A stretch of DNA of 63,576 nt, the filler included, from Folioceros fuciformis (lineage: Eukaryota), in the NCBI GenBank assembly GCA_049999805.1. It is 13 parts of 13 records of this genome, joined end to end, with 100 filler letters (N's around TTAATTAATTAA, not from the genome) between each part and the next. Parts side by side here need not be neighbours in the genome. Positions count along the whole stretch, not along the records: positions 47,316 to 55,442 come from JBNGIO010005919.1; 12 more parts are not named here. The stretch is one strand, 5' to 3'. The position numbers were made by a program, and so were the translations under genes. Numbering within the stretch: the first letter of the stretch is position 1; every line of letters starts with the position of its first letter. Of the stretch, positions 13,882-62,074 are shown piece after piece. The notes beneath the pieces were generated by a model that did no database searches, was not told the origin of the DNA, and worked only from the letters and a program-made list of their open reading frames with translations.

Positions 13882-13888
13882 GTGGGAG

Positions 13889-14294: not shown

Positions 14295-14365
14295 GGCTCC
14301 CCGCTTGCAACTCTGATCTTCTTAGCAGGAACACTGAGCCCTCTTGCTGGGGAAGAACTTACCCT

Positions 14366-15830: not shown

Positions 15831-16082
15831 CCCGAAGCATAATCCTAAGTGGTGTCCGCCCGAACTTGTCCTTGATCAAAGTCCACCTCAGGTATCTGTA
15901 CCTACGATTCTGCCTCTGTCGCTACTTTTGTCCGGCTAGCATAAGGAAGATAAGATTTCGTCAACACCACATTTTCCCCCTGCACCTTCCGTTTATTAGC
16001 ACACAAACCGACCACTGCCGCCCATATGCCACCTGCTGGGCCCCCCCTGTAGGAGGCTCAATGCCTTTATTGAGCCACCGAG

Positions 16083-23400: not shown

Positions 23401-25804
23401 CTCCGGCGGGGCACATACATTCCTATATGCAATTACATGTTGCTCACGGAATTTTTCCTTTTACATATTCTTATTCTTTTTTTGTACCCATTAAATAATA
23501 ATTTTCTGAGTAGACACTACTACCAATGCAATTCTTTTGTATGCCATCTAAGGACTTTGTAACCATTCACATGATCAAAAAGCAGTCTTTCATTCAAACA
23601 TGGCTTTACTTGGTTTCTTCTTCATTTACATTTTGATATTTGATGTCAACCTTTTGTGCAAGCAAGTCTTCATTGTGTAAAATATGAGTGCAATCATACT
23701 CCTTATCGTGATGAATCATCGTTCACAAGCGCAGTGGGAAAAATTCTACAAGATATAACCAACAATGCATATGAGCATGTATGGAATACCGATACGGTCA
23801 GACTGCCTTTCACACAAACTTTACCGCGACGATATACGATCCAAACATTTTGGACGTAACAAGTGCCTTGCTTAGGTCATAGGGCACAAAGTAGGTGTCC
23901 CAATCGGGTCATCTACTTTGTGATAATATTTTATCCCTCACGTTGGGGTCCGTCTCTCTCCACTCACAGTCATTCACTTTTTTTTTAGTTAGAATTAAGG
24001 CTTGTGGGTTCAACATCCACGGTTCAGCATCCATCCTCGGGACCTCAGCATTCACCGTGCTGTCTGCTTTGCACACATATGTCGCCTCCATGCACACCCC
24101 TAACCGTCTGAGTTTTCGCCACTCCAATCCAAAACTTGCTCAAAGGGACATCCCTTCTTGCCTTCCTCGCTATGCGATGTGAGGAGGACAAAGAGACAAA
24201 CAAACAATAGTGGGGAATGAAATGGCCACCTTTATTTCACAGCTCATGAGGGCAAGGCAAACCTACACATGGTCTCACCCCACAACACACACGCCCCTAA
24301 GGCACTGGACAGATCCCCCCTCCCCCCATTACTACAGAGAGCGAAGCAGGCAAATGCCTGTCCACGCCCACTGAGTGGCCTCCTCCTGCATCCAAGCATG
24401 TAAGTAGGCATCCAAGGGCTCCATTCTGCTTTTGCACTCTCTGCACAATGTGGTCAAGGCCAAGTGCAAGCTGTACATATCAGGCAGATACTCCATACCC
24501 TCCAAGCCTTTCACATAAGTGTTGTCGCAGGCGACTTGCAATGCTTGCATAAAGCACAGAAGGGGGTGTGGGTTACAATTACCACCACTTGCAATCACCA
24601 CAACGCACAACAAGCAACTACAATGTGGAGGATAGGTTTGCTTGTAAGGTGCAACGGTAAAAGGAAATTGCACACAACATGCCCAAACGCCACTGCAATA
24701 TTCTGCTTGGCCAAGGCCATCGGAAGCAACAACTTGCAACACACCCTACATGCACGAACAACAACGACAGCTCTATCCACAGAGTGCAGCCACGAAATGC
24801 ACTGTATGTCTGCAGTTACAATCACTACACTCAAACTGCACCCACAATGCTACACCACAAATTGCCAGTGCAACTCTATTTACAAAGCACTCTCTCCAAC
24901 TACTCGTTCCCTAGCCCTATCGACATGGAATGTGGAACTGCAAGTTGCATTTGCAAGCACCCCCTATAGTTACCAAGAACCATCACGAGATGCAAGTTGC
25001 AACCACATATAAAAGCAACAAGGTTTAGGTCTTTAATCTCTAGCCACAGTCACACGAATTTTTCCTATTCAACCGCACTATATGCACAAAGAAATGTACA
25101 TCTGCCATCTCCTCCACCATTGCAGCTCAACCTACAAGGACAATGCAGTAACAGACATCTATTGCACAATCATGCACAAGTTAATTACGGGTCAACAACA
25201 ACAGCTTGCAGCCACGCCTGCATAACTCCCAAAGCTCACTTTATCCAGAAGCTCAATCCTCCTCAACGGGAGCATCTGCAGAGCCACATTCTGCACTTAT
25301 TGTGGGCCCCTGGCAGCGTACTCCTCTCTATCATCATCCACTACACCATACGGAGGTGGCTGCACCAACCCCTGCAGCCGCTCTTCCTCTTGGAAAGTGA
25401 TTGCAGGGACATGCCTTGGGATGTCTCAATTCGGGCCCCTCATACGCCGTCCTTGATGTCGATTCCACACTTGCCTCCATCGTTGCAACTCACCCCTCAT
25501 GGTGAGCATGAAACATAGCATGCAAGAAATGAATGTGCNNNNNNNNNNNNNNNNNNNNNNNNNNNNNNNNNNNNNNNNNNNNTTAATTAATTAANNNNNN
25601 NNNNNNNNNNNNNNNNNNNNNNNNNNNNNNNNNNNNNNGGATCAGTGAAGTCGACGGTGGCACGCGGGTGTCCATACACAACCAGCGGGACTGCGAAGGC
25701 TACAGTAGCGTTGCACAGATTTACGGACCAGGGTGCGTGGTGCAAGGGGCGACCAAGCTGCGGGCTGTCTGGATTCAGGGTTGAACGAAACAGTNNNNNN
25801 NNNN

Positions 25805-31219: not shown

Positions 31220-33089
31220 CCACACAGGTTTATTTCTAAATCTGCAACATAAAAGAGAGCATGATCCATAGTTGCCTTCACATAGCGCAACGTTCGCCTT
31301 ACTGCATCCAAATGTGGCTTTCTTGGCGCTTGCATAAACTGACTTTGCAATCCCACTGTATAGTTCAAATCTGGTCGGGATAGAGTGAGATATATCAAGC
31401 TACCCACAATCTTCCTGTACATTGTTGGATCTTCAAGTGCTTTACCATCATGAGCACTGAGCTTTAGATTTTGATCCAAAGGAATCGAGATTGGCTTGCA
31501 CTCAACCATACCATACTTAGTTAGTACATCTGACGCATACTTCCGCTGTGACAGCCAAATGCCTGTGTTGGTTCGTATAATTTCAATGCCCAAAAAGAAC
31601 CTCAGTTCACCTAGGTCCGCCATCTTGAACTCTTGTTGTAGAAGTTCCTTGATCTGCTCCACTTGATCCAACTGATTACCTCCAATGATTAGATCATCCA
31701 CATAAATGGTCACAAAGACCAGTCGTTTTGTACTTTTGCACACATACAACGAATGATCCGCATCTGCCATGTTGAATCCGATGTGAATCAGATGCTGAGC
31801 AAGACGCTCATGCCAAGCCCTCGGGGCTTGCTTCAGTCCGTACAACGTTTTTTTCAGCTTGCACACATGATTTGGATGATCCAAATCCTCATATCCTGGT
31901 GGCTGGTCCATGTATACTTCTTCCAGCAATTCTCCATGTAAAAACGCATTCTTCACATCCATATGATGTAGGACCCAACCTTTCGATGCCGCTAGTGCGA
32001 TCACGGTTCGAATTGTTGCCATTTTGGCAACTGGACTGAACGTCTCCTCAAAATCTATTCCATATGTCTGGGCATATCCCTTGGCCACAAGCCTTGCCTT
32101 GTACCTGTTGATACTACCATCTGCGTTGTGTTTGACCTTGTACACCCATTTGCAACCTATTGGTTTCTTGCCTTCAGGTAGTTGTACTAGGTCCCATGTT
32201 GCATTCTGATTTAACGCATTCATTTCTTCATCCATAGCATGTTCCCACTTTGTGTCTCCAATAGCTTCTTCAAAGCTTCTTGGTTCCACATCCTGTACAA
32301 CCTTTGCCATATAGGCATGGTGCCTAGCTACATAGCTATCATAGGTCAACCGCTGTATTGGAACCTTCTGCCTTCCAGATCTCCGTGGGATTGAACCACT
32401 TCCAGGGGCTGATTGAACCTCTTTTGCACCAGGTGTTTCGATTTTCGGTACACCGAATTCCTCATCCAAGCTCTGCTCAGAGTCGCTTGAATCATCCGCA
32501 CCTGCACTTAGGTCTGGTATCTTTGAATCCTGGACTTTTTCCTTCCCTTTGCGAGACACAGCTGTGGAGCTCGTAGGACTCACACTACCTCGCAACCTGC
32601 CACTCCATGGATTCTGAACATTTGTCGAGTTTGATGACGCTTGCGGTCCACTCAACACTTGTGATTGTTGACCTGCATTGCTTGTTACCTCAGTTTCAAG
32701 CACATCAGCTACACTACTTCCTTGTACTTCAAAGTACCAGCTACCCATTTCATCAAAGACTACGTCTCTGCTTACTCTCATAGTCCGTGTACTGGGATTG
32801 TAGCACCTGTATCCTTTCTGTGTAACAGAATACCCAATGAAGACACACTTTTCTGCTTTTGGATCAAGCTTAGTCCGCAACTCATCCGGAATATGGACAT
32901 AAGCAATGCAACCAAATACCTTTAAGTGTGACAAGTCAGGTTTCTTCCCTGTGAACTGCTCCTCCGGTGTTACACTGTGCACCGCTGCTGTGGGAGTTCT
33001 GTTCATGATGTACACTGCTGTGCTTACAGCTTCAGCCCAATAGTAGTGAGGCATCTTCTTCTCTGTCATCAATGCTCTCGCCACTTCTG
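31220..33089 (-). mobile_element. Ty1/copia integrase C-terminus and RT, uninterrupted ORF
   Basis: [39 protein letters not shown] and IYVDD. No stops over the whole contig. Confidence 0.96.
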
Positions 33090-33189
33090 NNNNNNNNNNN
33101 NNNNNNNNNNNNNNNNNNNNNNNNNNNNNNNNNTTAATTAATTAANNNNNNNNNNNNNNNNNNNNNNNNNNNNNNNNNNNNNNNNNNNN

Positions 33190-36100
33190 CTGTGTCTCAT
33201 TAGTTGGAGTTGTTACTGCAGAATGGGCCGTTGGTGCCTTCAGCTGCTGGATGGGATTGCTCTTCAAGTTAAACTGGTACAGGTCATTCTTGAGAGTACA
33301 TGTAGCCAGTAACTTATGTGGAGCAGCAGCCTCTCTCAAGGCAAGACCCTCCAAGGTCATTTCAAGGGTAAGTAACAGAGGTGACAATCGTCTAAGAGAG
33401 ACAAGATTTTTAGCCATCTGAGGGACATAGATAACATCTAACAGTGTGATGGACTTACCTTGTGTAGGTTGGAGGACAACGGTGCCAGTACCTTCTATAC
33501 ACAACCCACTATCATCGCCTAGGAGTACAAATTGTCCCTTAGGAGAAGGTATGAAAGTGATGAAGGTTGTGCGTGTGTTACAGACATGTGTTGTGGCACC
33601 TGAATCTAGATACCAGGCATGCCTATCTAGTGAAGAGAAGACCATGCATACTGTGAGGATGGCCCTTGTACTTTTCTTGGAGGATACATGGGGAGATGGA
33701 GGAGCCTCTCTCTTGGCTTCGCCATTCTGCTTCTTGCGGCATTCAGACTCCACGTGGCCAGGAGTCCTGCACCAGGTACATGGACCTCTCTTTGAAGTGC
33801 TTGACTTCGAGGCTGGCCATGATGGGCGAGGAGAGCCGGGCTTATAAGGTGGACGATTGCCACCTGGAGCACGCCGTCCTCGTCCTCGAGAGACAAACAT
33901 GGCTCGTGCAGCATTGTTGGAGGAGGAGCCTCGGCCACGAGTGTGAGTAGCCTCCTCGTTCAGCAGAGCACCAATAATATCTGATAATGTGATTGGTGAA
34001 GGTGTGCCTGCGGCTACTGCTGCTTGGGCAGCTGAGATGTGCTGATTTTGAGTGCTCACAAAGCTGTTGTATTTCTCTGGAAGTGACATGAGAAGGGGCA
34101 CTGCAGCTTGGAGTTCATCAACAGTTGTGCCGGCAGTAATTAGTTTGGTGTGACGCATCTTGAAGCGGCTGACATGATTCTCAACAGTATCACATCTCGC
34201 ATTCTCAGATTGTAGAAGGCACGTGTAGCATGAACCAGTGATGTTACGCTCTTCTTTTGGTGCACTTGGCAGAGAGAGTCCCAAATTGCCTTGGAGCTGT
34301 CTGCCTCTCGAGCATGAGACATCATGCTCAAGTCTAATGCAGACTGGATCACATTCTGGACACGCAAGTCTTTCAGTTTCCAAGCTTGTTTTTCAGCTGT
34401 AGTTGCAGCAGTTGGAGGCATTGGAATGATGCCAGTCACGTAGTCCCAGATCTCCAGTTCTTGTAAGATGGTCCGCACTCGAATCATCCAGATGTCGAAG
34501 TGTTGACCACTAAACCTATCTCTATCCTTGAAGTGATACTTAAAGTTGTTGACAGTGACATTTGCAGGTGGAGGATTAGCCATGGCAGAAACAAATGTAT
34601 ACTGACTAAACTGGGTTTCACTTAAATCAAACAGACGATCAAGGAATAAGGAAGAGGAGCTATGTGAGCTATGTGTGGACCTTGGAGTGGAAACAATGCT
34701 GCTAGGAGAGGATGGCTGAATGGGAACTACACCTGAGGCTACCGTGCCAATGGTACTTGTAGAACTTGGTGGGAGATCTGGAAGGTCATAAGCTTCTGAG
34801 TAGTTAAAGGGGTTTTCTGGAAAGACAGGAAGTGGTGACGCCTCTTCAGATCCGGAAGCTAGTGACTCTTTAGGTGTTCCTTCATATCTGAGTCTCTCAA
34901 GTGACGTTTCAGACCTCAAACTTGCAGGTGTCGTTTCAGGTCTAGCAGGAATTCAGCGAGGTGGCCTCCCTACTGGGCTTGGATCCCAAGGTTTCGACAT
35001 ACTTAAACACCATCTTCCTGGATTTCGCCTCAAGTGACATGTGTGTTAGAAGAGCAGCAACTTCTGAGATGACGTCGTCCTTGGTTCTTCCTTCAGGTAA
35101 TATGCATGGCAATTCTGAAGAGAAGTTTGGCACGACTTGTTGGAGATTGATGAATGTGGTCCTTTCTGGTTCAGCAATCACTGACTGTGTGTGTTGTCGC
35201 TTCGCCACCCTGTCCATGTGCGCAACCTTTGTGAACAGAGAGTTCAGGTCCTTAGACAGGTGTTTGCACCTGCAATTAATGTCGTCGATCTTGCTGCGAA
35301 GGCGCTCTTCTTGAACTTCACGCATCTGCCGAAAATTGCACAGGTTTGCGTGCGTGTGACGGCGTTCCTCGGCAAACAGATCACAGACAATTTTCAGAAC
35401 CAGCTTTGCCTGGCCAGTCGTGATTTCAGGTGTGCTCACAAATGGACGCAGGTGCCCACTTCTTCCACAAGTGTCGCAAGAGCTCGCAACTTGGCGAGTG
35501 CAGGGAGGAATGTTCTGTTGTGGTAAGCTAGAAAAGAAGGACTACTGATCTGCACTACTCCTAAAGGGAGATGCTACTTGCCTTTGTGGATTGAAGGTGC
35601 GCTTTGTGCGGCCATTGCGAGGCATTGTTTAGGATAGTAGTCTAGTTGTTAACATTCCTTGTGCAAGATTGTAGACTATTGTGTGCAGGGGTTCAGGTTA
35701 TCTACACCTATATCCAGATGTGAGGAGAGACACTGGAAAAAAAAGGTATAGATGACTAGTGCTCCTACACAGGCTTCTTTTCTACAGTGAATTGAGTCTT
35801 GGACACAAGTGAATTGATCACAGATTGTGCTAGAGGTGTGCGTGACTGATTGTAATGGGTTGCCCTGTGCAGGGCAAAGACCAGATCAGGACGCATGAGA
35901 TTTGCAAGAAATTGCAAACTGGCAATCTGCGAACGCGGGTCCATCAGGGTGGCTCATTGCTCCTTGGTGCCAGGTGTGCGGACACTACGCGTAGTAGTGG
36001 TTGACAATCTCCGCCAAGAAAGCTTCCGCCATGATGCCAAATCGGGTGAGAGAGAGTCTGAGTGCTTGGATTGCTGCCCGGAAATTCTTGTGTGACAGGC

Positions 36101-45292: not shown

Positions 45293-47215
45293 GGCTCCAA
45301 GCGTATCATCATTAGTAGGGATGTGATTTTTGATGAGGATAGAGATGCTGCAACTAAGATCGTAAATGCATCTATTGTGGGTGATCATGAGTTTACTGTG
45401 CCTCCAAACGAAGTAGGAGAAGACAATGCTCATTGCTCATGCTGATGAGAATGAGAAGACTTCTAGTGAAGGAGAAGTTGAGGAGCAAGCACCAAGACAG
45501 CAAACTCCTCCACCTAAGAGGTATCCAGCAAGGGAGCGGCGCCCACCTAAGGATTGGAGGGAAGGGCCCGAGTTTGCGTGTGTGGCTGTGGCACATGGAA
45601 GTGAACCCATTACAGTGGCTAAAGCTTTACAAGGACGAGATCGTGAGCACTGGAAAGAAGCCATGGATGAGGAGATGAAGTCGCTCCAAGGCAACAATAC
45701 TTGGATGTTGACTACATTGCCTCCAGGAAGGAATGCCATCGGATGCAAATGGGTGTTCAAAATTACGAGCAATTCAAGTGGACAAATTGATAGATTCAAG
45801 GCTAGGTTGGTGGTGAAGGGATACGCTCAAGAGGAAGACATTGACTACAATGAGACATTTGCCCCGGTTGCAAAGTTTGCATCCATTAGAACCTTACTTG
45901 CAGTGGGAGCAATTGATGATTTGGAAATCCATCAAATGGATGTGAAAACAGCATTTCTGAATGGGGATTTGGAAGAAGACATTTACATGGAGCAGCCTCA
46001 AGGGTATGTAGCAATCGGCAAGGAGGACCTGGTCTGCAAATTGAAGAAAGCCCTCTATGGATTGAAGCAAGCGCCATGAGCTTGGTATCAAAAGATTAAA
46101 TCTTATCTTTTGGAGCAAGGTTTTCAACCATGTACAGTAGATGAGAGCATCTACACTTCTGAGGTCGCACAAAGTAAGGTAATCTTAGCTATGTACGTGG
46201 ATGATCTAATCCTACTAAGTCCATCTCTAAGTGCTATTGCTAAGGTGAAGGAGATGTTGTCAAAGAAGTTTGAGATGAAGGACTTGGGGGAGATTCATTA
46301 TTTCCTTGGAATTGAAGTAGTAAGAGACAGAGCTGCACGCATCATTAGGCTTGGCCAGCAGAGGTATGTGGAGGAATTGTTGGAGCAGTTTGGAATGGTT
46401 GATTGCAAGCCTATTGGAACTCCTTTGAATTTAGATGTGAAGTTGTGCAGGGAGCATTGCTCCTTACGAGATGGGGAGAAGTATGAGATGAGCAACATTC
46501 CTTACAGGGCAGCAGTTGGAAGTTTGATGTCTGCCATGATAGGAACGTGTTTGGACATTGCAAAAGCAGTGGGAGTAGTGAGCCAATTTATGCAGAGTCC
46601 CGGAAAACAACATTAGATTGCAGTAAAGAGGATCATGCGATACTTGAGAGGTACAAGCAACATGTGGTTGGAGTTTTCAGGTGCAAACAAAGACCACAAT
46701 CTTGTTGGGTATTGTGATTCAGATTGGGCAAGTGATTTAGATGATAGAAGATCAACAACCGGATACGCCTTTACCCTAGGAGAAGGTGCCATCACTTTGA
46801 ACAGCAAGAAGCAACACACTGTGGCCATATCCACTATGGATGCTGAGTACATGGCATCTACTCAAGCCACCAAGGAGGCCGTGTGGTTGATAAAGCTAAT
46901 GGAGGACATTGGTTATAAGCAGCAGCAGCCAACCACTCTTAGAAGTGATAGCCAAGGAAGTATGGCTTTGATCAAGAACTCGGTACACCATGCGAGGACA
47001 AAGCATATTGATATTCAACATCACTTTGTGCATGAGAAGGTGAAACTATTGGAGGTTGTCTTTGAGTATTGCCAAACGGAGGAAATGGCTGCAGACTTTT
47101 TAACCAAGGCAGTTAGCAAGTTCAAGTTTGAGAAATGCAGAGGATTGCTTGGATTGAAGCAAACTCAAGTGCGCTGAGTGGGAGTGTTAAGAGTGATTAG
47201 TGCTGAGAGTAATTA
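45293..47215 (+). mobile_element. Ty1/copia integrase end, RT, RNase H, PPT and LTR start (2 nonsense mutations)
   Basis: IISRDVIFDE, GCKWVFK, YVDD and GYCDSDWA. Stops at 46077 and 46614. LTR TGTTAAG starts at 47185. Same family as 12654-14294. Confidence 0.95.
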
Positions 47216-47314: not shown

Positions 47315-48079
47315 NAGAAGAAGGAGGAACTGCTTGTAGATTTGGAATATGATCAAGAGCGACTTGTATTGCCTTCACTTAACTTAAACTAAAGATAGTA
47401 AGCAAGTTTCTTCTAGCAATTTCTATCTGCCTCCCTTGATCTTCTACATTGATTAGAATAGAGCCAATAAAGTTAGCAATAAGTATGGAATCTCCTACTA
47501 TTTGGCTATACTTCCTAGCAATTCTAATCTTTGCATTCCTATATTCTATATCTTGTCTTGCAGCCTTAATCTTCTTCCAGTAGCCTTGCTTGCAAGGATT
47601 GAAGGAATCCATCACGTTGGAGCAAGGATTGGATGCACTGAGTGTGCATTATTGAAGATTAGGGAACCTGCAAACATGACAGCAATCTAACGAATCTATA
47701 CATCTTCTAAAAAGAAATGAAGAAGAAGATGAAGAAGAAGTGTAGAGCAGCATGTCAAGTTGCCCAATGCAAATAGAGAGCAGCAATGCTCTGATACGGT
47801 GATGATAATCATAGCTGCTCTAGGTAGCAAAACATAGCAAGCAGATAGTAGAAAGCTTTGCACAAAAAGAGTTGTATGCATATATTATAATAGAAAGTAC
47901 AAAGCCTTTATATAGGCTAAGTGGTTACAACCATAAGGTGGTTGTAACCATAAGTAGTTCTAACCTTTAAGTGGTTGTAACAACTAACTACTCAATAAAC
48001 TACCTAAAGCCCTAAGAACTAAATAAATTAATAGTCTTAGGTGCCCTAGTGAAGAGTGCCCTAAATAGGTCATATTTCA
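47315..48079 (-). mobile_element. Probable LTR inserted into the CRE-like element
   Basis: AT-rich, with a TATATAAA box and GGTTGTAACC-type repeats. Starts TGAAATATG on the minus strand exactly where the REL ORF is cut. Confidence 0.5.
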
Positions 48080-48811
48080 TGAACCCGGGGGGTTGATAGT
48101 GACATGCTCGCTGAAGGTTGTCCGAGTGGGGTCTATGACCACCACTTTCGCTGTAGACACTAGGTCCCCCTTGGTCAAGAAAAGGTTTGCCATGAGGGAG
48201 ACACCATTTAGCAAGGTATATGGGCGCTCCTTGTAGGGGAAGAAGCCACCCTCCTTGGCCAAAGAAAACATAACGTCCCTCACTGCATTATGGGTGGCGA
48301 TACGCTGCCCATCGGTAGGGCAACGCGCCAGGTGGCTCCCAAGGTCATCGAGGGGGACCCCACAACTACAAGAAGAGAGAGATCAAGCCAACGTCTGGAC
48401 CAAGCCTAGGTGGAACCTCATCACGGTAGAGAAAGAAGCTTATGCGATTTAGAAAGCCTGGATGCATGGACGGGCCAACAACCAAGAGCTAGCACCCTTC
48501 CCTGAACAAGATCAAAGGAGTGCCCGAGCCTACTTGTCAATGGAGAAATCTAGCATGAGGCCTGTAACTCTTGCCCATAATGCTTTTCCATGAGGGTGGC
48601 GGCCTGAAGCCCCCTCATACCCCCACAAAGGAAGGAGGAAAAAGAAGGCATGACCAATCGAGCTTGTGAGGATAAGAGATCCCGGGCCCTCTTAAGGGAC
48701 TCCTGGAGGGGGAATGACCCCTCCTCAACTCTCTTAACAAACCCTCCAAGACGCCCATGTTTCTGATGGAGAAGCGAGTCACTAAAGCTGGGATAGAGAG
48801 CGCCCAACTAC
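48080..48811 (-). mobile_element. CRE-like non-LTR fragment (RT C-terminus, CCHC and REL)
   Basis: CSCGVPLDDLGSHLARCPTDGQRIATHNAVRDVMFSLAKEGG...VVVIDP, homologous to 22906-23400. Confidence 0.78.
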
Positions 48812-50626
48812 TGTCGTGAAATTGTAGCAAAAATGGACTTATAGTATAGCATCATGGTGAACGTGATAGTTTAGTGGAATTCAGTTGATTAGATAATAGG
48901 TGATTAAACTAACTCAACCTAAATTAGGTAAATGGCTAAAATACTAGCCATGGCTACTTGCCCACTAGAAGCATGTGGGCTCAGACAGCCCATGGAAAAC
49001 TGCTTGAAGGGGCACCAAACATAAAAACTAAACACAGCGAGGAAAAAGGTAGTTGTCGAAGTCGCTCATGAGAGGAACCACCGGACAACCTAAACCTTTT
49101 TTTGCTGTTCACTAGCCGTCTATGAAAGGAAGAGCTATGCAGATTGAGGGTGTAAGGGAGATGGTGGCATCCCGCTCGTGACTTACCAACTCTGGGCAGC
49201 CCAACGAGGGCAGTCCCCTTTTTGCAGCTTTACGACACGGAGTGAGCTATGGCGCATGTGAGCAGCCTAACATCTTACTTCGACAACTACCTTTGTCAAG
49301 CAATGAGGGCACGGGCGAGGAGCTCTTAGAGCGCAGCCAAGCAGCTACAGCAAGGCAGCATTTGTGGAGCACCCATCCAGACCCGTTTGTGTGAAGTCTG
49401 TCATTTTCCCTTTGCATTGCTAGGGATTTAGGGTTTGTAGGGACTCTAGGGGCGCGGCCAGACATGTGCATTCAGGCAGCAGCCTTGGAGAATCCCTCTC
49501 TTCCTTTGTAGCAGCTGTGAGTCTGGAATGTGCATGCTCAGTGTTGTAGCAACTACCTTTCTACTCGCAGCAGCTACATGTTGATCCAAGGCTCTATAGA
49601 CAGGGCTTAGGAGAGCTGGCAGCTAAGGCACCGCCAAGAGACCACATCGAGGCAGCCCCAGCAAGTCGCTCAGCATTTGACGCACTTAAGCCTCGGGTTT
49701 GGGGTTTGAGGGTGTGGAAGTCAAACTTCAGGAGGACATAACGGCCGCAATTCCGCTTGTCTGCCTTAGATCTACATACCAACAGATTTGTCGTGAAGAG
49801 GCGAACATTTTGGTATGTTTTGCGCTTACTTTTGAGCTGATTCCAGAGACTGATCTTAGATTTTCAGTGTGGATCAGATCANNNNNNNNNNAGCTGATTC
49901 CAGAGACTGATCTTAGATTTTCAGTGTGGATCAGATCACTGCAAGAGGAGGACATAACGGCCGCAATTCTGCTTGGCTCCCTCTGATCTACATACCAACA
50001 GATTTGTCTTGTAGAGGCAAACATTTTGGTATGCTTTGTGCTCACTCTTAAGCTGATTCCAGGGACTGATCTTAGATTTTCACTGCGGATCAGATCACTG
50101 CAGGAAGAGGGACATGGCTGATCATGGATGCTTTGGGGAGGGGTAGATTTCTTGTTCCCTCAGTACTCCAAGAAAGTTGTGTTTCTTTGCTTTCTGATCA
50201 CAATTACACCTGCCCAGCAAGCCTAGGGAATTGAGATTTTCCAGGGGTAGGATTTTCCCAAACTAGGATTATCTGGATAGGGAGTAGCTGAGCTTTGCTC
50301 ACACTCATTCAGACTGTGGGGGGCAGCTGTAAGCTACGACCAGACGCGGCATGAAGGGAGGCCACCATCAGATTATTTGGGAGGAGCTAACCCTCATTTC
50401 TTGCATGCGTGGTTTGTTCGAACCACATGTTTAGGGGCTCGTTTTGCCTTTGAGAACAAGGGTTTGATTTGGAGGCCAGCAACAGCCAGTAGAAGCCTGA
50501 AGGTACTGTGGGTACAACTGAAGCAGTGTGTGGTGTCCCAGCGAGAGTCACTTCCCTAGGCCCGATGTTGTCAATTGCAGCACAGCACCTCACTGTTTTT
50601 GCCAAGCACCAGCTGTAGGTGTAACA
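48812..50626 (+). repeat. Putative 5' LTR (~1.8 kb) of the DNMT-gypsy element, with ~160-bp internal tandem repeats
   Basis: Starts TG where CRE homology stops and ends GTAACA, followed by G-TGG (PBS-like). Repeats at 49731-50107. No second LTR is in the window to confirm it. Confidence 0.5.
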
Positions 50627-50640
50627 GTGGTGCATGGGGT

Positions 50641-52457
50641 ATGCAACCAGATCAGCAAGAGGCCAGCCTACGTTACCGATTGAGGAGTCGAGACATTCCT
50701 ATCAGGGTATCACCGGAGCGTGCACAACGGAGGAGAAGATGGGCAGCTCGACGACGCCAACTTGCAAGTGAAGAAGACTTGAGAGAGGACTTGGAACCAG
50801 CAACATCCGTTGGGCAACCCAGCTGGTCACCCCTCTTAGACTTGGGCAAGATTGTTGTGCTAACTAGCTCAAATTTAGGGGGTCAGCTAGTTTGTGACGA
50901 GGAACCTGAACAACAAGGGTCTCTCTATTCACAGCAATCATTTGTGAGGTCACAGCAGACACATCCAGGGTTTGCTGGGTCTGTCCTTGGTGTAGGGCAA
51001 GGCCTGGGTGACTTGTCTGAAGGGTCAGACACCATGGAGGGTGGTTCATCAGGGTTTAGGCCTGAGAAATTCTCAGGCAGACCAAGCACCCAATCCTTAA
51101 GGGACTTCCGCTTGTTCATCAATGCAGTCATCAGCAGGGTGAAGTTCAAACATGGTGCTGCCTACAACCACCAGTACATGTTTGAACAGTTGTCCAGCTA
51201 CTTAGCAGATGAGGCATTGGATTTGTACGAGGCTCACCAGGCTGAGCTATCGGGCACAATTGCCACTCCTAACCCAGCCCATCATTCGGCTCTACAGTTG
51301 GCATATAATGCCAAACTGGCAGCAGCCATTAATGACCATCAGGCTGAGATTGTAGCCAAGACCATCTCCGCCACCACACCACCTCCAACGGTGGTGAATT
51401 TGACACTAGCAGAGCGGGCTACTGCCACAGCTGGTGTGCAAGAGTTTCTACACACTTGCAAGTACCTGAACCCAGTGGAGGAGTTCCTAGCTATTTTGGA
51501 GAGGGCATTCCCACTGAAGACCCCAGAGAAAATTGCAGAACTTGCTGCCTTTGCTCGCAAAAAGGGAGAGACAGTCCAGATGTGCTTCAGGAGGCTACAG
51601 AAATTGAGGGAAGGTACAGGGATGTTAACAAATCAGGAAGCAGCGCAAAGGTTTTTGACTGCACTTGAAGGAGACCCGTTGTTTCATTTCCAGCTGGTTA
51701 CATCCTTGGTGGACAAATATGGGGACAAGTATACTTTGGAGCAAGTGCATGAAGAAGCTGAGAAGAAGGAGGTAGCCTTTTCGGCCTATGCCTCTCGGCA
51801 TTCCAAGGCCTTCACGCACTACCAGTCCATGTTCTCTAGCAAGGGGGCAGCTAACACAGGTGCAGGAGCCAAGGCTGGTCAGATTAAGCCAGTTAAGGTA
51901 GCTTCAGCAGCAGCTCCAACGGCAGCAGTGGTAGCCATGTGTAACCATTGTGGCAGCCCTGAGCACATGTCCCCTGCATGCAAGTGTCCTCCGGAGGGAC
52001 TCTACTGCACCCATTGCCAGAAGAATGGACACGTGGTTACTGTGTGCTTCCAAAAGCACCCCGAACGAAGATACCAGAAGATTGGTACCGTAGGGTCTGC
52101 AGGAGCCACAATTGCTAGTGTGGAAGCAGGAGGAACTAGGAGCGTTGTTGGGTTGTCCCGCAGTAAGCAGCAGCGTGACAAGGCCAAGGCTAAGGCAGCC
52201 GCCACTGCTGACAAGGTCAGCTCCCTTGAGGCTTCCATGGCTGCCATGACAGCTCAACTTGGAGTCTTGACAGCCAACCTGTCCAGCATCACCGGCTCTT
52301 CCAAACCAGCCAATGTGGTGAAGTTGGTACCAGGACCAGAGGATGAGGATTATGGCCCAGCACACCAAGTATGTATGGTTGACAGAATTGGTGAGAGCAG
52401 CATGGAGGTGGAGTTGCCAGCCACATGGGTGGGGCAGAATTTACAGGTGGTCATGGG
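50641..52457 (+). CDS. gag: Gypsy-type Gag with two CCHC zinc knuckles
   Basis: FRPEKFSG...LADEALDLYE, FARKKGETVQMCFRRL, CNHCGSPEHMSPAC and CTHCQKNGHVVTVC. The frame is interrupted by the solo LTR at 52458. Confidence 0.85.
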
Positions 52458-52867
52458 TGTTGAGATGTCACCCCCGCCATGCTCAAAGGAGGTTAAAACA
52501 AGTTAGTTGAAGCAAGATGCAGAATCCCAAAACTAAGAGCACTATAACAAGGCTCTTAAACTAAAATAAAAAGGAGAATTACAAAAACAACACAATACAA
52601 GTGAAGAGGGAGTTAGACTGCCTATACTAAGTGGGTTCATCCCTTCTTTTATGGACCTATGGGTGGCACTCTCATTTTGTGCCCAATATGGGATAAATGA
52701 CCCCAACCAAACCCTACAATACTTCGTTTGCCCAACATAGCAAAGTCTAATAAGCTATATATATTTATATATATTAATTATAACCTTAATCACTCTTACC
52801 ACTAATTAGTACAAACTCAATAAGCTGGATTAGCACTAATTAATCTCAACATTAATCATGCTTAACA
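52458..52867 (-). mobile_element. Copia solo LTR (410 bp) with a 5-bp TSD
   Basis: Reverse complement of 13889-14294, with TG..CA ends. ATGGG is present at both 52453-52457 and 52868-52872. Confidence 0.95.
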
Positions 52868-55442
52868 ATGGGAACAACAGCACCTGCCTTAGGGCCTATC
52901 ACCAGGAATCGAGGGGCTAGGGCTACCATGCCAAAGTCCTTTGCCCCGCTGCCACCGGGGTCTGCAATTCCGGTACGAGGCCAGGAGCACTCAACGCTGC
53001 GTGTGGAACAGCTGCCCACGATTAGAACACCCGGCCATAGCATGCCAACACCAGAGCATGTGTATCTCTTACCCCAAACCACCACAGTCACACAACTGGC
53101 TGCCAAGCTAACTCAGGTGCCAGTTTTCACACTGTAGGACATGGGCATCACGACCAGCAGGCTGAAGGAAGTTCTTCAAACTGCTGAAGCCACGGCTGCA
53201 TCTGCTGACCCTAGCCTGGGTACAGCGTACACTTCACAATGGGTGCTGCCAATAGCGATGTCACACTCTACAGGTGGGCAGACAGCACCAAGTCACTGCA
53301 ATGGCTCTTACACTGTACAGCTAGTTGAGGGAGTTGACAGCCAACCGCGAGTGCAGTCCACCAATCGACTGCAAGCTCGTGTCAGCAATGCAGTTGTTGA
53401 CAATCGTTGTGGGCACGTCACAATCAATGGGTATGCACCCAGAGTGGTGTTGCTAGACACGGGAGCCCAACCAGTACTCGTTGGGAAGATTCTAGCTGCA
53501 AGGTTGCATCTTCAGGGTGATGCATTGCATACCTCGCCTTGGAACATCAGGACGGCATCCAGGGCTATTGAACCAGTCTGTGGTGAGACAGTCCAACCCC
53601 TGGACATCACCTTGAACTCGGGCACGCCAGATGCCATGACATTGTCCTTGCCCTGCCTGGTAACCACAGCCACCAACTATGATTTGCTGTTGGGGCAAGA
53701 GTTCCTCTTTCCACCAGGAGTTGGTGTGGATAACTGGACTGAGCAAGCCTTCTATAGGCCTGACTGGAAGCAAGGAGGTCGTCGCATTGCACATCTACCA
53801 TTAGATTTGCATGGCCAGGTGGAGGTTGATGTAGCCACTTTGGTGAAAAGCCCGGCTGTAGTTGGTATCAAAAGTAGCAATGTGGTGGAGCTTGTCCAAG
53901 ACACATACCAAGTGGACAAGCATCTAGAGACCAATGTTGCAGAGGCCCAAGTGAGGTGTACTAGTTTGCAGCAAGCTCTAGTTCAGCCTGACTGTCCAGA
54001 GCAGGCAGAGGCATTGCTGACCAAGGCACAAGAGCAGGTCAGCAAGGTGCAACAATTGTTGGAGGCCGGGACCCTATCATCTTGTTCCACATCTTATGTG
54101 GACAATACTGTCATCATATGGGCACCGGCTGCGCTAGCCCTTACAGTCGTTGAACTGTTTGGTGGTATTTGTACCGGGTTAGAAGCTTTGCTCTTGACAG
54201 GTTTGAGCATTCAAAGGTACCTTTACTGTGACAAAGACCCCGTTGCCAGGCAAATTGCTGCATTTCGGCTGCAGGGTCTACAACATCGTTTCCCACAGCA
54301 ATTGTCAGCTGAGGCTTTGGCTAATACATTCACGTCCTTACCTCAGGACGTCCAGTATATACAGCAGGGCCACATCCAAGCCTTGGGCCCCATCGACATG
54401 GTCATAGCTGGCTGGGAATGCCAAGGATTCTCTCAAGCTGGGGTAGGTGCAGGGTTGACAGATCCACGTTCTGGTCTGTTTAGAGATCTCCAACAAATCT
54501 TGGCATGGGCACAAGATAGTAACTCTCAATGTGCATACCTGCTCGAGAACACACCAGCCCAGTTTGATACCCGGCCACAGGTGCAGCAGGATATGGCCAT
54601 TGTGCGACATTTTGCAGGGCCACCATTCCTCATGGATGCTGTGCAGGTGGGTAGCTATGCCCACAGGCTTCGTAACTACTGGACCAATTTGGTCCATGTC
54701 TCCGTGTTGGACTTGGCTCTCTGGAACACTAGCAGGGATCCAGGGCTGCAACTTTGTACTGTATTGGAGAACTACCACCAGCCACAACCTGTGGTGGCCA
54801 GTGAGAAAGCCCCTTGGTTCAAGACCAACATTCCAGGTCAGCCAAGGCAGACGTTGCCCACGCTGGTCAGCTTTCCGGGTTCATTTGCTTACAGAGGAGA
54901 AGGACCTGGCTTATTATTGAATACTGAAACGCAACGGTGGGAAGAACCAACAGTTGAGGAGCGAGAGCGACTCATGGGTTTTCAAACCCATAGTACAGCG
55001 GCCCCCACTGTCACCAATCGGCAGCGCAAGGGCACTCTAGGACGAGCCATGGACCTCCATGCCATCACATGGTTGGTGAGTTTGTGCCTTGCCTTTCAGC
55101 TGCACACTCAGGTCACTCCCATGCTACTCCCAGGCTTGTTTGCTAGCATCTGCCCTGGAGATGCTGTTCACCTCCCATTCCCAGGATACACACAGCTGCC
55201 TTTCTGGCTAGATGCTGGGGGGGGGGAGTACGCAGTATTGGCATCACGTACTGTTTACTCAGCATCTGATCAAGCCAAGGCAGAAAAGGAGGATCCAGGA
55301 GCTACACCCAAGCTGTCTGCTGTTAATTTCCCGTGGAAAATGGGCTCAGAACTCAGTTTGAAGCAACAGGACCGCATTCGTAACTTGCTGCTTAGGTACA
55401 GGGACTGTTTTGCCTTTTCCATGCATGAGCTCAAGAGGTGCA
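52868..55442 (+). CDS. pol: Pol N-terminus: aspartic protease, C5-cytosine DNA methyltransferase and start of the RT region (truncated by contig end)
   Basis: Protease VLLDTGAQ...YDLLLGQEFL. DNMT motifs in canonical order (54140-55075). Pre-RT segment QQDRIRNLLLRYRDCFAFS. One in-frame TAG at 53135-53137. Confidence 0.88.
54140..55075 (+). other. C5 DNA methyltransferase domain within the retrotransposon polyprotein
   Basis: Motif I VVELFGGICTG; II YCDKD; III QDV; IV AGWECQGFSQAG; V-like DPRSGLF; VI LLENT; VIII AHRLRNYW; IX EERERLMGF; X LGRAMD. Confidence 0.9.
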
Positions 55443-55542
55443 NNNNNNNNNNNNNNNNNNNNNNNNNNNNNNNNNNNNNNNNNNNNTTAATTAATTAANN
55501 NNNNNNNNNNNNNNNNNNNNNNNNNNNNNNNNNNNNNNNNNN

Positions 55543-57818
55543 ACCATCAGAAAATCCCCTTCCTCCAGGCGGTTCAACTTAATAAACTCGCCTGCAATCA
55601 TCACCAGCAGGGCCCTAAAGGAAAACTCGAGGAGAGCAAGAATGTGCCAAAAAAAAGGCACCAAGTGAAGTACGACACAAGCAACGTAAGGGTCAGAAGG
55701 ACTCTCCTAACGAGAAGGCCCACACCCTCACCTGTGGATTCAAGCACATACATCCGACTTTGTTAGGAGAAGGCCCACACCCTCACCTGTGGATTCAAGC
55801 ACATACATCCGACTTTTGTTGTTGGGCCAAAACCTGCAAACCAGAAAGCGAGTGTTTACAGGGCTTCAGCTTCAAGAGAGACACATTGGGCCTCAAGGTG
55901 TTGTGGGTACCTGTATTTCAGTTTCCACTTTTTCCCGGTGTTGTAATCCTCGGCATGAATAGGAATCCCATCCTTGAAGGTCAAAACCGGCAGCTGACTC
56001 TCAGCGTCTCGCTGAGAAACAGACCAACATCATCACTGAGAACTGCCTAACCGGGAAAAATTGGTCAGAAACTAGAGCATGAAACACATTCAGCACAGGA
56101 GAAGGTAAAGTAAGGTGCAGATAGGAAAAGAGACCTTGGGCAGAACAATCCGTCCCAGACCCCCTACGTCACTTGCTCTGAGCTCCTTCTTGAACAAGAA
56201 CAGCAAGCTATCCTCCCTGCGACACACACTCCGACCCTGCAACCACAAACACAAGCGAGCACTGGATGCAGCGTCATCTGGAGAGGAAGCGGACGGCCAA
56301 TCCCAAACAACTGTGTAACTATGGATTCAACACTTCTCCAGAAATCAAGGGGACGGGAGAAAAAAACATTCTATTCAACAAACTCGGACACCTTCTCGGC
56401 CTGTTATAACCTTCTCGCTGTCCTCTAACTCCCTGAATCCACAACCATGCTCCCATTCGTGATCTACACAAAGTAGCCCGCGCCCTCCTTCCCCCACACG
56501 CACACACGCACACACTCACACTGAAACACACACAGAGGCAAGGAAAGTGCAAGGGAAAAGGAGGAACAAAACCCACCACATCTGCATTTGCAGAAGCGGA
56601 ATCCACAGTAGACGTGCCCCCACGTTGGGGGGAGACAACATTTTTGGTGCCAGAAGAGGAGACGGTGACGCCAGAGAAGGCGCCCGCGGAGGGGGCTACC
56701 GGCGCCGCCGGTGCGACGGCGGCAGAGGAGCCCCGCGGATGTTGATGCTGCGATAAATTGATGAGACGCTGCTTCGCCATCCGACGCCTCCGAGCTGCCC
56801 GTGTAATAGCACCTGAGGTGGAGGGGCTAGTGGGAGATGCACACGGAAGCGGAGCCGACGAAGATTTCATCAATTCCCGCAGACGGGTCCTTGAAGCAAT
56901 CGCCGACAAATCCTCCTCCTGGAATGCGGTAGTCGCGGCCCCAGTCTGGGCCACGTGCACGAAGCTTGGCACGTCCTGCGGCTGCTGTTGTTGCTGCTGC
57001 GGGTTCACCTGGTGCGGGTGCGGAAGCAGGGTAGGAGGCGGCTGCACCCCGGGCACCAGCGGTATGGAGTTCATAGTGGAACCAAAAAAATTTGCCCGCG
57101 GCCGGTTTTTCCCTGCATCTGCCAGGCAGCTGTTGGGAGGCGACGAGAGACGGGCATGAGTGTATGAAAACTCGTTGACGGCGGGTCCTCCGCCGCCCCA
57201 CACACATCCCGCAGGCGCAGGTGCCGGCGCCGGCGGGATTTGCTGCTGCAGCGACTCCTCCTGGTCGAGACGCTCGGAGGCCAAGAAGGGAGCATCCGAA
57301 ATCTCGATGTCGTTGGCGCACGCTTCGCCCAAAACGCGAAGGAACTGTTCAATACCCAAATTCCCCATCGCCTGCCACAGTAGCTTAAAGTTAGTGACCT
57401 TGACGCGTTTCAGGTCAAGTCGGGAGGCAAGCCACTGCAACATCGCCCGCAAGTCCTCAGGATTCGGCCGAGGGACCTGATGCTGCCGTGGGTACTCATG
57501 CTGGTCGCGAGAGAAGACCATGAGAGGCTGTGGCTGCAGCTGCTGCCGATGCGGAGGCGAAGGCAGATGCAGCTCTCGCCAGTCCGTGTCCATGTCCACG
57601 TCGAGGATCTCGCACCAATTAGGCCCATCCAGAACGTCTCTGGGAGACTCCACCTGCCGCTCCAGCACCTGCACCCCCTCCATCCAGTTGTCTTTACCTT
57701 TGACATCCACGACGCCATCCCCTCCGCCTGGGATCACCATCTCCCCCGTCCACACACCGTTGCGCATTGTCTTGTTCGGCATCCTCGCTTGCCTCCCAGC
57801 AAGCTCCTCCTGCCACAT
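55543..57818 (-). CDS. ABI3: ABI3/VP1-like B3 transcription factor (3' end beyond the contig)
   Basis: Exon 1 has a B1-like EDLRAMLQWL..DLKRVKV and B2 TRAARRRRMAKQR. B3 exons: 56135-56236 (FKKELRASDVGGLGRIVLPK), 55911-56011 (RDAESQLP..WKLKYR), 55787-55833 (FWPNNKSRMYVLESTG) and up to 55591 (EFIKLNRLEEGDF), with GT-AG introns. Confidence 0.9.
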
Positions 57819-59625: not shown

Positions 59626-59962
59626 GGTTCTCAAGCTACTCTCTGAAATTGAAGTTCTCAATTTGCAGATGCAGCAAGGCGCCGGGGAGGTAACACACCA
59701 AAAACATGCGACTCCGAATCCGGCTTGCGGTTGTGTCGCTCCATCTCCTCCATTGTTAACACATCATCCTATCTGTGCTGCTTGCGTAACTACAGAAGGG
59801 GAGATCATCATAGCCCACCAATTGCTTGCTGTGCGTCCGAGAGCCTTAAAGACGAGTTCCCTGNNNNNNNNNNNNNNNNNNNNNNNNNNNNNNNNNNNNN
59901 NNNNNNNTTAATTAATTAANNNNNNNNNNNNNNNNNNNNNNNNNNNNNNNNNNNNNNNNNNN

Positions 59963-62074
59963 NGCAGACCTATCGGGCCGCATAGCTCGCTGGATCTTGC
60001 TCTTGCAGGAGTTCACATTCACTGTGGAAACAAGGGAAGGGCGTAGGCATGTGAATGCTGATTTTCTATCTAGGCTGAAAACGGGGAATGTGGTTCAGGA
60101 CCAAGAAGATGATTTTCCGGATGAGGCATTTTCAGCAGACCTAGTGGAGAAGGAGAGGGCCAAACCAAATGTTAGGTTGCCAAGAGGTGAAGGTGCAGCA
60201 CCAAATGAGAAGGGGAGAAGAGGGTCCCGTAAGCCTTCCTACCAAGAGGTGTATGATTTTTTAGGTACGGGGGAATTTCCAGTTCATCTCACACGGCAGC
60301 AGCAACGGCTGTTCCTGTACTTCACAAGGCTGGTGGTTAAGTACAAGGGCAAGCTGTATCGCACAGGAGCTGATGGCGTGGAGAGGTTGTGGGTCAAACC
60401 TGGCCAAGTGGAGCAAGTTATCAGCTCCCTACATGAGGGAGAGGCTGGAGGCCATTATGCAGCCCATGTGACCTGTAGAAAAATTCTGGCAGCAGGGTAT
60501 TGGTGGCCAACAATGCATGCTGATGCTGGAGAATTCATCAAGAGGTGTGATGCATGCCAAAGGGTGGGGAAGCCTACTAGGACCACACAATGGCCATTGG
60601 TCCCCATTCTAGCCCTAGCACCATTTGAGAAGTGGGGGATTGATTTTGTAGGACCAATTCAGCCCAAGTCTAAAGGAAGGCAGAACCAATACATCCTGGT
60701 GGCAACTGACTACTGCACACGCATGGTGGAGGCCCAAGCTTTGCCCGTGGACACAGCAAATATGGTGGCCCGATTTTTGTTTGAGCAAATCATCATAAGG
60801 TATGGGTGCCCGTTGGAGCTGGTGAGAGATAGGGGGACTCATTTCATCAATGAAGTAGTCAAGCACATGACTGAATATTTCAATATCAGTCATAGGAAGA
60901 CCACTCCCTACAACCCTAAGGCCAATGGACTCACGGAGAAGGCTAACGGGCTGTTGTGCAAGATCCTCAGCAAACTCACCGTCACCTATGCTCATGACTG
61001 GGATAGGAAACTCCACTCAGCCTTGTGGGCATACAGGACTGCTGAGAAGGTTACTACCCAGCAGACCCCTTATTACCTCACCTATGGACACTCACCGATC
61101 ATGCCTATCGAATTTGAGGTACCTACCTTGAGAATGCAGGAGAGCAATCGATTGCCCGTGGAGGAGAGCCAGCTGGAGAGGCTAACCAGTTTTGTGCAGC
61201 ATGATGAGGATAGGGAACGGGCCTTGGCTGTTTTCCTTGATGTTCAGGAGAGGAGGAAGAAGTGGCACGACCAGAAGTTGCGTAAACAAGAGTATGTTGT
61301 GCCTGGAGATTTAGCCTTGTTATATGACAATAGGTACATGCACTTTCCAGGTAAGCTGCACTTGAGATGGATGGGACCTTAAAGGGTGCTGGAAGTGTAT
61401 GAGAATGGGTCCATCCAACTGCAGCACCTCAACGGCCCTAACTTGCCAACTAGGGTTAATGGCTGGCGGGTGAAGAAATATTATCAGTAGTTGGCGAGGA
61501 CGCCAACAAATGAGAAGGGGAGTATGTGGACTCCACATCCTGAATAGGTCCTTGGAAAATGGTAGGATTTCTCTTTTTGGGAATCTCTAAGTGAACCCTA
61601 TGGTGAAAAAGTTAAAAGATTAGGAAAGATTAGTAGCTACATTAATGGTGAGGTGAGATGTGTCTTTGAAGGGTTGCTGGAATGATCTGAGAGAAGGGAT
61701 GGAATGATTTGAGAGAGGAGGGAGAGGGTTGAGAGGCACTGACCATTTTGGTAGTCTTGAGAGGTTGGTCAATTTTGGTAAGGGCACCTAGTGGTGTCCA
61801 TGGGACACAACCCCTTTCAGGTCAGAACAAGGTTTGGGTCAAAGTTAGGGTTAGATCAGAGTTAGGTTTAGGTTAGAGTTAGGTTTAGTTCAGAATTAGG
61901 GCCGGCTTAGGTCAGAGAGAGATTGCTGGGTGGTTGACTGAGGCTAACCCTAATAGATAGAGATGGAGGTTTGGGCCAAGGTAGTATAAAAGGCTAGACC
62001 TGCCATTGAGGAGGGGGCTGTCTACGGTGCGATTTCCCTGGACCTTGGGTGCAGAACTCCTGGCTTAGGGCGCT
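59963..62074 (+). mobile_element. Ty3/gypsy (Athila-like) RNase H end, integrase, PPT and 3' LTR
   Basis: RIARWILLLQEF, NADFLSRL; HHCC (HEG..GGHY..CDACQ); WGIDFVGP; YNPKANGLTE; C-terminal VNGWRVKKY after one TAA. PPT 61512-61524 and LTR from 61525. Confidence 0.95.

Follow-up and report, generated by a model that had tools for sequence, protein, structure and literature searches.

Retrotransposons that carry an enzyme of a class used by hosts for silencing are rare and poorly understood, and the stretch considered here raises the question of whether a Ty3/gypsy retrotransposon encodes its own C5-cytosine DNA methyltransferase (DNMT), and in which kind of host. The stretch, positions 50641-55442, lies at the end of one contig in the window, that is, the whole stretch of 63,576 bases that was analysed, which consists of 13 contigs (1.4-12.9 kb) joined by 12 identical artificial linkers of 100 nucleotides (nt). 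It is very probably a dead, contig-truncated copy of a Ty3/gypsy-type element of the Gypsy-DNMT3 kind, in which gag, protease (PR) and DNMT are followed by reverse transcriptase (RT), RNase H (RH) and integrase (INT), and which resides in a streptophyte host. The Gypsy-DNMT3 type has one described host species, and the activity of its enzyme has never been demonstrated. With the element described here the type gains a second sub-lineage, which is deeply diverged and has kept its catalytic core in full.

An element of this type had been proposed by a sequence-only reading of the stretch, from a Gag with two zinc knuckles, a retropepsin marked by LDTGA, a full set of C5-DNMT motifs in order, the segment that normally precedes gypsy RT, and a protease-DNMT-preRT stretch free of stops for more than 760 codons. 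Each of these features stood up to analysis, and the DNMT proved to share one frame with the protease before it and the beginning of RT after it. The gag frame covers 50560-52506 with its first ATG at 50641; Gag itself (50641-52457, plus strand, from this ATG to the break described below) is recognised by the frame and by matches to the gag of the relative P0162 and, more weakly, to Closterium and Klebsormidium proteins, while no Pfam gag family was found in the frame at E<=0.01. Two CCHC zinc knuckles, both of the form CX2CX4HX4C and both found by pattern, lie on the plus strand at 51940-51981 and 52006-52047. Further downstream, an open reading frame (ORF) of 768 codons at 53138-55441 (+) holds protease, linker, DNMT and pre-RT and is cut by the contig end. 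The retropepsin occupies 53417-53704 (+; ORF residues 94-189), with the D-T-G active site inside LDTGA (start at 53453). With 27.1 bits, Asp_protease_2 clears its Pfam cut-off of 24.3, and gag-asp_proteas, also at 27.1 bits, falls slightly below its cut-off of 28.2. A Gag with CCHC knuckles followed by a D-T-G retropepsin was thus found, which is the order expected of a Ty3/gypsy (Metaviridae-type) element.

The DNMT3-like C5-cytosine methyltransferase domain follows at 54128-55102 (+; ORF residues 331-655), with its catalytic Cys in ECQGF at 54416. The last 39 residues of the frame (55325-55441, +) match the pre-RT segment of gypsy Pol in another relative, P0193, at 49% identity, and the contig stops there, 39 matched residues into that segment. 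At 55442 the contig runs out, and an artificial linker (55443-55542; N44, TTAATTAATTAA, N44), foreign to the element, comes next; the element itself does not end there, which corrects the first reading. The TTAATTAATTAA in each linker, another of which lies at 59864-59963, places a stop in all six frames. Since the pieces are joined by linkers, adjoining pieces are not genomic neighbours, and no feature may be read through from one side of a linker to the other. The element sits on the piece 47316-55442, 8,127 nt in length with a gap of 10 N at 49882-49891.

The methyltransferase domain and its relatives

In a Pfam search the domain passes the threshold of the DNA_methylase profile PF00145, with 25.1 bits against a cut-off of 22, in an alignment that spans only ORF residues 404-456, around motif IV. 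The conserved motifs start at 54152 (ELFGG), 54416 (ECQGF), 54539 (LLENT), 54659 (AHRLRN), 54959 (ERERLMGF) and 55037 (LGRAMD), and we take these to be motifs I, IV, VI, VIII, IX and X, respectively. Their order is linear, not rearranged as in DRM, and they align to DNMT3A. In a sequence search of the PDB, 29 of the 43 distinct sequences found at E<=1 are DNMT3A, DNMT3B or DNMT3C, with E values from 1.2e-10, reached by DNMT3A, to 2.6e-5; the next matches outside DNMT3 are M.HhaI at E 0.21 and DNMT2 at E 0.61. The AlphaFold2 model of the domain, built from 49 aligned sequences, has a mean predicted local distance difference test score (pLDDT) of 90.9 and a predicted template modelling score (pTM) of 0.88. 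When this model was compared with solved structures by Foldseek, all matches listed, down to rank 48 with gaps, were DNMT3A, DNMT3B or DNMT3C, the best being DNMT3A at E 8.9e-19 with a target TM score of 0.82.

Furthermore, 53 of the 55 columns conserved at >=85% in a 143-member family alignment are retained by the window domain, and these include the catalytic Cys, the E-N pair, R-x-R, and the glycines of the S-adenosylmethionine (SAM) loop. Motif IV of the window domain reads E-C-Q, not P-C-Q; across the 143 rows, Glu is present at this site in 80 and Pro in 50. E-C-Q is the majority state of the family and hence not a defect of the window copy. Matches of this strength lie far outside chance, and sequence and predicted structure give strong grounds for regarding the domain as a DNMT3-class C5-methyltransferase with a DNMT3 fold and an intact catalytic motif set.

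Relatives were collected by an exhaustive HMMER search of 1.84 billion protein cluster representatives, and names were looked up for 30 of them. At E<=1e-3 the search gave 1,974 relatives, of which 252 also pass E<=1e-30; the best has E 1.9e-76 and 42-43% identity. A word-based search with the whole PR-DNMT protein gave five relatives against the 1974 by HMMER. Two placements of the DNMT in Pol were observed among the best 150 relatives. In 90 of them the DNMT follows RNase H and precedes integrase, and a PHD finger is usual at the C-terminus; in at least 13 it lies after the protease, as in the window; and in the other 47 the DNMT stands alone. A DNMT3-like domain is widespread in gypsy elements, at two distinct Pol positions, and more broadly so than in the literature searched, in which no description of the RH-DNMT-INT-PHD gypsy architecture was found.

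The two placements are also separated by phylogeny. For tree building, 12 of the 154 candidate proteins, with a DNMT match of fewer than 250 query residues, were left out. In a FastTree tree of 143 DNMT domains, a branch with support 99 splits off all 15 PR-DNMT rows, the window among them, together with nine whose architecture is unknown; the 90 RH-DNMT-INT rows all lie on the other side. A smaller set of 49 rows, made up of 23 rows from the PR-DNMT side (one identical duplicate left out) and 26 RH-DNMT-INT rows hand-picked across the FastTree tree, was analysed by IQ-TREE under LG+C20. The same split was recovered with a Shimodaira-Hasegawa-like approximate likelihood ratio test (SH-aLRT) value of 87, and the window domain pairs with P0162 at 100. 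Among the 30 relatives looked up, the named hosts on the PR-DNMT side are all streptophyte algae, with Klebsormidium represented once and Closterium by five proteins from four strains.

The homology is not confined to the DNMT. P0162 is collinear with the window polyprotein at 42% identity over 604 residues (E 1e-150), and its gag matches at 34% identity over 452 residues, with weaker gag matches to Closterium and Klebsormidium proteins. With the Klebsormidium nitens protein GAQ93235.1, collinearity extends over PR and DNMT (29% over 583 residues, E 5e-65), and the gag of this protein also matches (26% over 182 residues, E 1.8e-8). The link to Klebsormidium that had been drawn from the sequence by analogy has therefore become one of direct homology of gag, PR and DNMT. 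In two relatives the downstream part of Pol is present as well: P0100 carries PR-DNMT-RT-RH-INT in one protein of 2188 residues, and P0193 carries PR-DNMT-preRT-RT. Since the same relatives show homology in all three of gag, PR and DNMT, the whole gag-PR-DNMT module descends together. This is evidence that the three have probably been kept together since before the elements of Klebsormidium, Closterium and the window host split. Judged by its homologies, the window element is not of a new kind but falls, as a distant member, within the streptophyte Gypsy-DNMT3 lineage, to which KnitGypsy-Dnmt3 belongs.

A broken copy of a multi-copy family

The copy in the window is dead. Its polyprotein is split by a nested copia solo long terminal repeat (LTR) of 410 nt with TG..CA ends (52458-52867, minus strand), antisense to the gypsy element and flanked by the target-site duplication ATGGG on the left (52453-52457, +) and on the right (52868-52872, +). 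The LTR had been assigned to a copia family found on other contigs of the window, and this was confirmed by 94.9% identity over 413 columns to the 3' LTR at 13889-14294 (+), which belongs to a copia element whose RVT_2 domain lies at 12654-13508 on another piece. Beyond the LTR, the polyprotein frame continues at 52868-53134 (+) between gag and protease, in phase with gag by coordinate arithmetic. The interruption of 415 nt leaves a remainder of 1 on division by three, which equals the offset between the gag and PR frames, so by the same arithmetic gag and PR formed one frame before the insertion. A second lesion of the window copy, and a further correction to the first reading, is an in-frame TAG stop at 53135-53137 (+) between gag and PR.

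Other copies were found in three public runs, X1, X2 and X3, which come from two studies, share one organism label and contain 82-85% of sampled words. They were compared with the window over 49892-55442. Contig depths in these runs are not copy numbers, and only the existence of distinct forms was used. All three have C at 53135, where the window copy has the T of its TAG. A joint from 52452 to 52868, which skips 415 nt, shares five letters and thereby fits the five-letter duplication on both sides of the LTR, was observed in two contigs of X1, three of X2 and one of X3. The X3 contig of 9,251 nt spans 49892-55442 without the LTR, with 31 differences from the window, and reaches 3,360 nt beyond 55442, with about 650 nt more on the upstream side. 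The runs contain a form that is more than 99% identical to the window copy and has neither the LTR nor the TAG. In addition, X1 and X2 hold a diverged copy, seen in a 956-nt contig with 83 differences and six gaps over 691 nt, as well as forms at low depth in which 75, 100, 277 or 323 nt are skipped. The element family is therefore multi-copy; some copies are young, and some are free of the lesions of the window copy. Because unbroken, near-identical copies exist in public runs, the family offers a practical system for asking what role the DNMT plays.

At 11 positions in 50203-55358 the window has T or A where all three runs have C or G; seven of these are in CHG, two in CG and two in CHH context. 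This hints at deamination of CHG-methylated cytosines, in numbers too small for a test. The summed depth of contigs over the copia LTR, relative to that over the gypsy element, is about 100-fold in the DNA runs X1 and X2 and about 2.4-fold in X3, an uncontrolled comparison for which depth is a poor measure. X3 may be a different kind of library, possibly RNA.

Upstream of gag, a non-coding repeat with a period of about 216 nt lies at 49730-50110 (+) and contains the 10-N gap. A joint from 50050 back to 49892, which goes back 159, was found in X1, X2 and X3, and the copy number varies between runs; the copy number given in the assembly is probably wrong. The untranslated region at 49892-50626 (+), beyond which the X3 contig continues for its additional upstream part, probably belongs to the 5' terminal repeat. 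Close to where the X3 contig ends there is a run of purines (49039-49049), which is no proof of a 5' LTR start. Just before the gag ATG, a tentative primer-binding site (PBS) that starts with TGG may be read at 50628-50639 (+).

The other pieces of the window are very rich in transposable elements. At least five copia (RVT_2) fragments lie on separate pieces (4158-4913, 7104-8009, 12654-13508, 31222-34952 and 45417-46079), and that at 31222-34952 (-) is a nearly complete copia gag-PR-INT-RT split by a linker. At 59964-61382 (+), the end of an RNase H and an integrase (Integrase_H2C2, rve) belong to another gypsy element. This fragment was considered as a continuation of the DNMT element and rejected: its identity to the integrases of both types of DNMT-gypsy is alike, at 28-33%, and no DNA match links it. 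Two ORFs, at 48077-48382 (-) on the element piece and at 22906-23340 (-), share a Cys/His-rich tail (…GSHLARCP…H…RH/THNAVRD…) with 68% DNA identity over 314 nt; we presume that they represent the C-terminal part of a non-LTR ORF2 of the long interspersed nuclear element (LINE) type. The piece 12654-25538 carries a secreted Lectin_legB protein at 20919-21830 (-; E 1.6e-46) in a GC-rich stretch (0.59), together with an exon set of a host-type gene at 18668-19868 (-), presumably for a rhodanese-domain protein as judged by eye. A Gln/Pro-rich open frame of 499 codons without a Pfam family lies at 56319-57818 (-). Scans of the whole window found no Rfam family and no tRNA gene.

Host, alternative explanations and proposed role

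The host is a streptophyte, either an alga or a land plant. The sequence-only reading had favoured a land-plant, hornwort-like host and had raised horizontal acquisition as one origin of the family. Neither proposal was borne out: the host evidence stops at Streptophyta, nothing tested favours hornworts, and horizontal acquisition is without support. Of its further argument, that the solo LTR shows the contig to belong to the host genome, the tie to a copia family was supported, and a member of that family lies on the piece with streptophyte host-type genes. A land-plant host falls somewhat short of an even chance, and so does the wider proposal that this would be the first Gypsy-DNMT3 element of an embryophyte of hornwort-like kind, as a relic from an algal ancestor or a horizontal arrival. 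For the Lectin_legB gene, all nine named proteins among 25 relatives come from land plants (ferns, moss and angiosperms; 28-40% identity), and no Closterium, Klebsormidium or Chara protein is among the 25; the named proteins among the 120 relatives listed for the copia polyprotein at 31222-33087 are likewise all from land plants; and through the solo LTR the contig of the DNMT is tied to a copia family that also occurs on the lectin-gene piece. However, named plant proteins in databases are overwhelmingly from land plants, so land-plant matches are expected for either host, and the best matches of both probes (lectin 42%, copia 70%) lie outside the named set. The atlas search resolves the host no deeper than Streptophyta. 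In Zygnema, an algal genus of the Zygnematophyceae, Lectin_legB takes part in 26 domain combinations, and copia makes up 29.8% of one Zygnema genome, according to the accessible part of PMC11096116. Moreover, among the 30 relatives looked up, every PR-DNMT protein with a named host comes from a streptophyte alga, and the window has no pointer to hornworts specifically. That the Gypsy-DNMT3 lineage survives in land plants as a young multi-copy family is a doubtful reading, in which are included the run form with a single uninterrupted gag-PR-DNMT frame and the 9.25-kb contig in the possibly RNA-derived run. If the host were a land plant, the range of Gypsy-DNMT3 elements would extend to embryophytes, and a land plant would have a retrotransposon-borne de novo DNMT3 activity beside its own MET1, CMT and DRM/DNMT3 systems. 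The literature searched yielded no account of a Gypsy element with a DNMT from land plants, hornworts or Closterium, and supplements may list further hosts; in the accessible parts of later papers only streptophytes (Klebsormidium) and dinoflagellates are named (PMC12344493; bioRxiv 10.64898/2026.05.21.726589). The assembly is fragmentary, the window being 13 short linker-joined contigs, and one might suppose that the PR-DNMT junction is chimeric or that the contig comes from a contaminating alga. This is very improbable and close to refuted, since gag-PR-DNMT-preRT is covered by contigs of three runs from two studies, one of which, of 9251 nt, spans all of it. The PR-DNMT order is the same in independent relatives, contrary to a chimera, and the copia family of the solo LTR also occurs on another window piece and is very deep in the same DNA runs. 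More improbable still is a host DNMT3 gene lying beside, or invaded by, an unrelated retrotransposon. Host DNMT3 genes do exist in streptophytes, as a general fact and the sole point for such a gene here, but this explanation is already contradicted by the single uninterrupted frame of PR, DNMT and pre-RT and by the conserved module order, which recurs at least 13 times among the best 150 cluster representatives; the homology of gag, PR and DNMT to the same relatives speaks against it as well. A genuine Gypsy-DNMT3 element of a streptophyte thus remains the preferred explanation.

What the DNMT does for such an element is a separate question. Its frame is that of the protease and of the beginning of RT, so that the enzyme would be translated within Gag-Pol, from which the protease might release it. 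From its conserved sequence, it may be a working SAM-dependent de novo cytosine methyltransferase that is kept by selection. It would act during retrotransposition, most likely on the complementary DNA (cDNA) of the element itself or at the new insertion, as was proposed by de Mendoza et al. 2018 (PMC5890265, here and below as far as its text is accessible). Self-methylation of the cDNA in particular is a rather unlikely guess. Across relatives, the DNMT is the best-kept region of the polyprotein. Between the window and P0162 or P0193, identity reaches 53-54% for the DNMT, 50% for PR, 36% for gag (P0162) and 24-25% for the PR-DNMT linker; against Klebsormidium the respective values are 37%, 26%, 31% and 21%, and against the Closterium protein P0073 they are 37%, 35%, 29% and 25%. 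Such conservation is not expected of functionless cargo, and it is an indirect indication and no substitute for a ratio of non-synonymous to synonymous rates (dN/dS). In K. nitens itself, the DNMT copies were reported to be under purifying selection, with Ka/Ks < 0.2 (PMC5890265). It could nevertheless be argued that the domain is cargo without catalysis, or that its role is other than catalytic, for example in binding DNA or in targeting, or that it methylates RNA. KnitGypsy-Dnmt3 gave no methylation in yeast (PMC5890265), and E replaces the canonical P before the catalytic Cys of motif IV. The yeast test, however, does not discriminate, since human DNMT3B was equally negative in the same assay (PMC5890265). 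The catalytic Cys, ENx, RxR and the SAM-binding glycines are kept, within the 53 of 55 conserved columns, contrary to a non-catalytic reading, and the cargo reading is opposed by the DNMT being the most conserved part of the polyprotein. A domain of these kinds is therefore improbable, and a catalytic DNMT3-type enzyme would be the better description.

Several points weigh against the reading of the stretch as a Gypsy-DNMT3 copy whose lineage carries an active enzyme. The RT, RNase H, integrase and terminal repeats of the window copy lie beyond the contig end, and because the window copy is without them, the label Gypsy rests on gag, PR, the pre-RT segment and the relatives. No inverted terminal match was found to the ...TGTAACA at 50620-50626, as TGTTACA, TGTTAC and TGTTA are all absent from 47316-50627, and the PBS-like TGG at 50628 has no tRNA to match among the zero tRNA genes of the window. 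In the better model, support for the split between the two DNMT placements is moderate (SH-aLRT 87), the branching on the PR-DNMT side is unresolved, and the trees are unrooted. The Glu that takes the place of Pro before the catalytic Cys is common to most of the family, and the negative yeast result for KnitGypsy-Dnmt3 is called inconclusive by its authors (PMC5890265). Finally, the window and the run form differ at 13 coding positions, seven of them non-synonymous and six synonymous; this division is uninformative on selection and is as expected for a dead copy.

Comparison with known systems

Retrotransposon-encoded DNMTs of other kinds are known from Symbiodinium, in the form of SymbioDIRS-Dnmt3 and SymbioLINE-Dnmt (PMC5890265). 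The Dnmt3-type domain in the Pol of SymbioDIRS performs de novo CG methylation in yeast (PMC5890265). These elements differ from that of the window in being tyrosine-recombinase DIRS elements or LINEs and in having dinoflagellate hosts, and their DNMT is attributed by the authors to independent acquisition (PMC5890265). EpiLTRs, as described in the accessible part of bioRxiv 10.64898/2026.05.21.726589, are similar to the window element in being LTR retrotransposons with a cytosine DNMT. Their DNMT, however, is sister to DNMT4 and not to DNMT3; they also carry a DAM adenine methyltransferase and a chromodomain, and their hosts are protists of the Euglena and Collodictyon type (bioRxiv 10.64898/2026.05.21.726589). 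Among solved structures, the catalytic domains of mammalian DNMT3A, DNMT3B and DNMT3C are the best match in both sequence and fold, and motifs I, IV, VI, VIII, IX and X align. Identity to them is about 20-22%, and the window DNMT lacks PWWP and ADD and lies inside a retroelement polyprotein. It is also about 90 residues longer than the DNMT3 targets of 283-291 residues, and the query TM score is 0.63 against the target TM score of 0.82.

The gypsy elements with the order RT-RNase H-DNMT-integrase-PHD carry a homologous DNMT3-like domain, with 35-43% identity and the same W-E/P-C-Q motif IV. In these elements, however, the DNMT follows RNase H and not the protease, a C-terminal PHD is usual, and the domain falls on the opposite side of the tree. 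The one named host of this type is a chlorophyte, Haematococcus lacustris (KAJ9527864.1), and further RH-DNMT-INT relatives are P0002, P0011, P0016 and P0018. Closer in architecture are the Closterium polyproteins (strains NIES-53, -54, -65 and -68; CAI7911866.1, GJP34393.1), which have the same gag(CCHC)-PR-DNMT order and lie on the same side of the tree, and of which P0073 shows about 37% DNMT identity to the window.

The nearest described element is KnitGypsy-Dnmt3, which, like that of the window, has a non-rearranged Dnmt3-type DNMT in a Gypsy Pol and a streptophyte host (PMC5890265). Its terminal repeats are DIRS-like, in the arrangement A-coding-B-A-B (PMC5890265). The K. nitens protein GAQ93235.1, which from its species and architecture is assumed to be a copy of KnitGypsy-Dnmt3, shares with the window the collinearity of PR and DNMT, the homology of gag and the same side of the DNMT tree. 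The relationship is distant, with 37% identity in the DNMT and 26% in PR, and motif IV is P-C-Q in the K. nitens element and E-C-Q in the window. In conclusion, the window element and P0162 form a sub-lineage of their own, apart from Klebsormidium.

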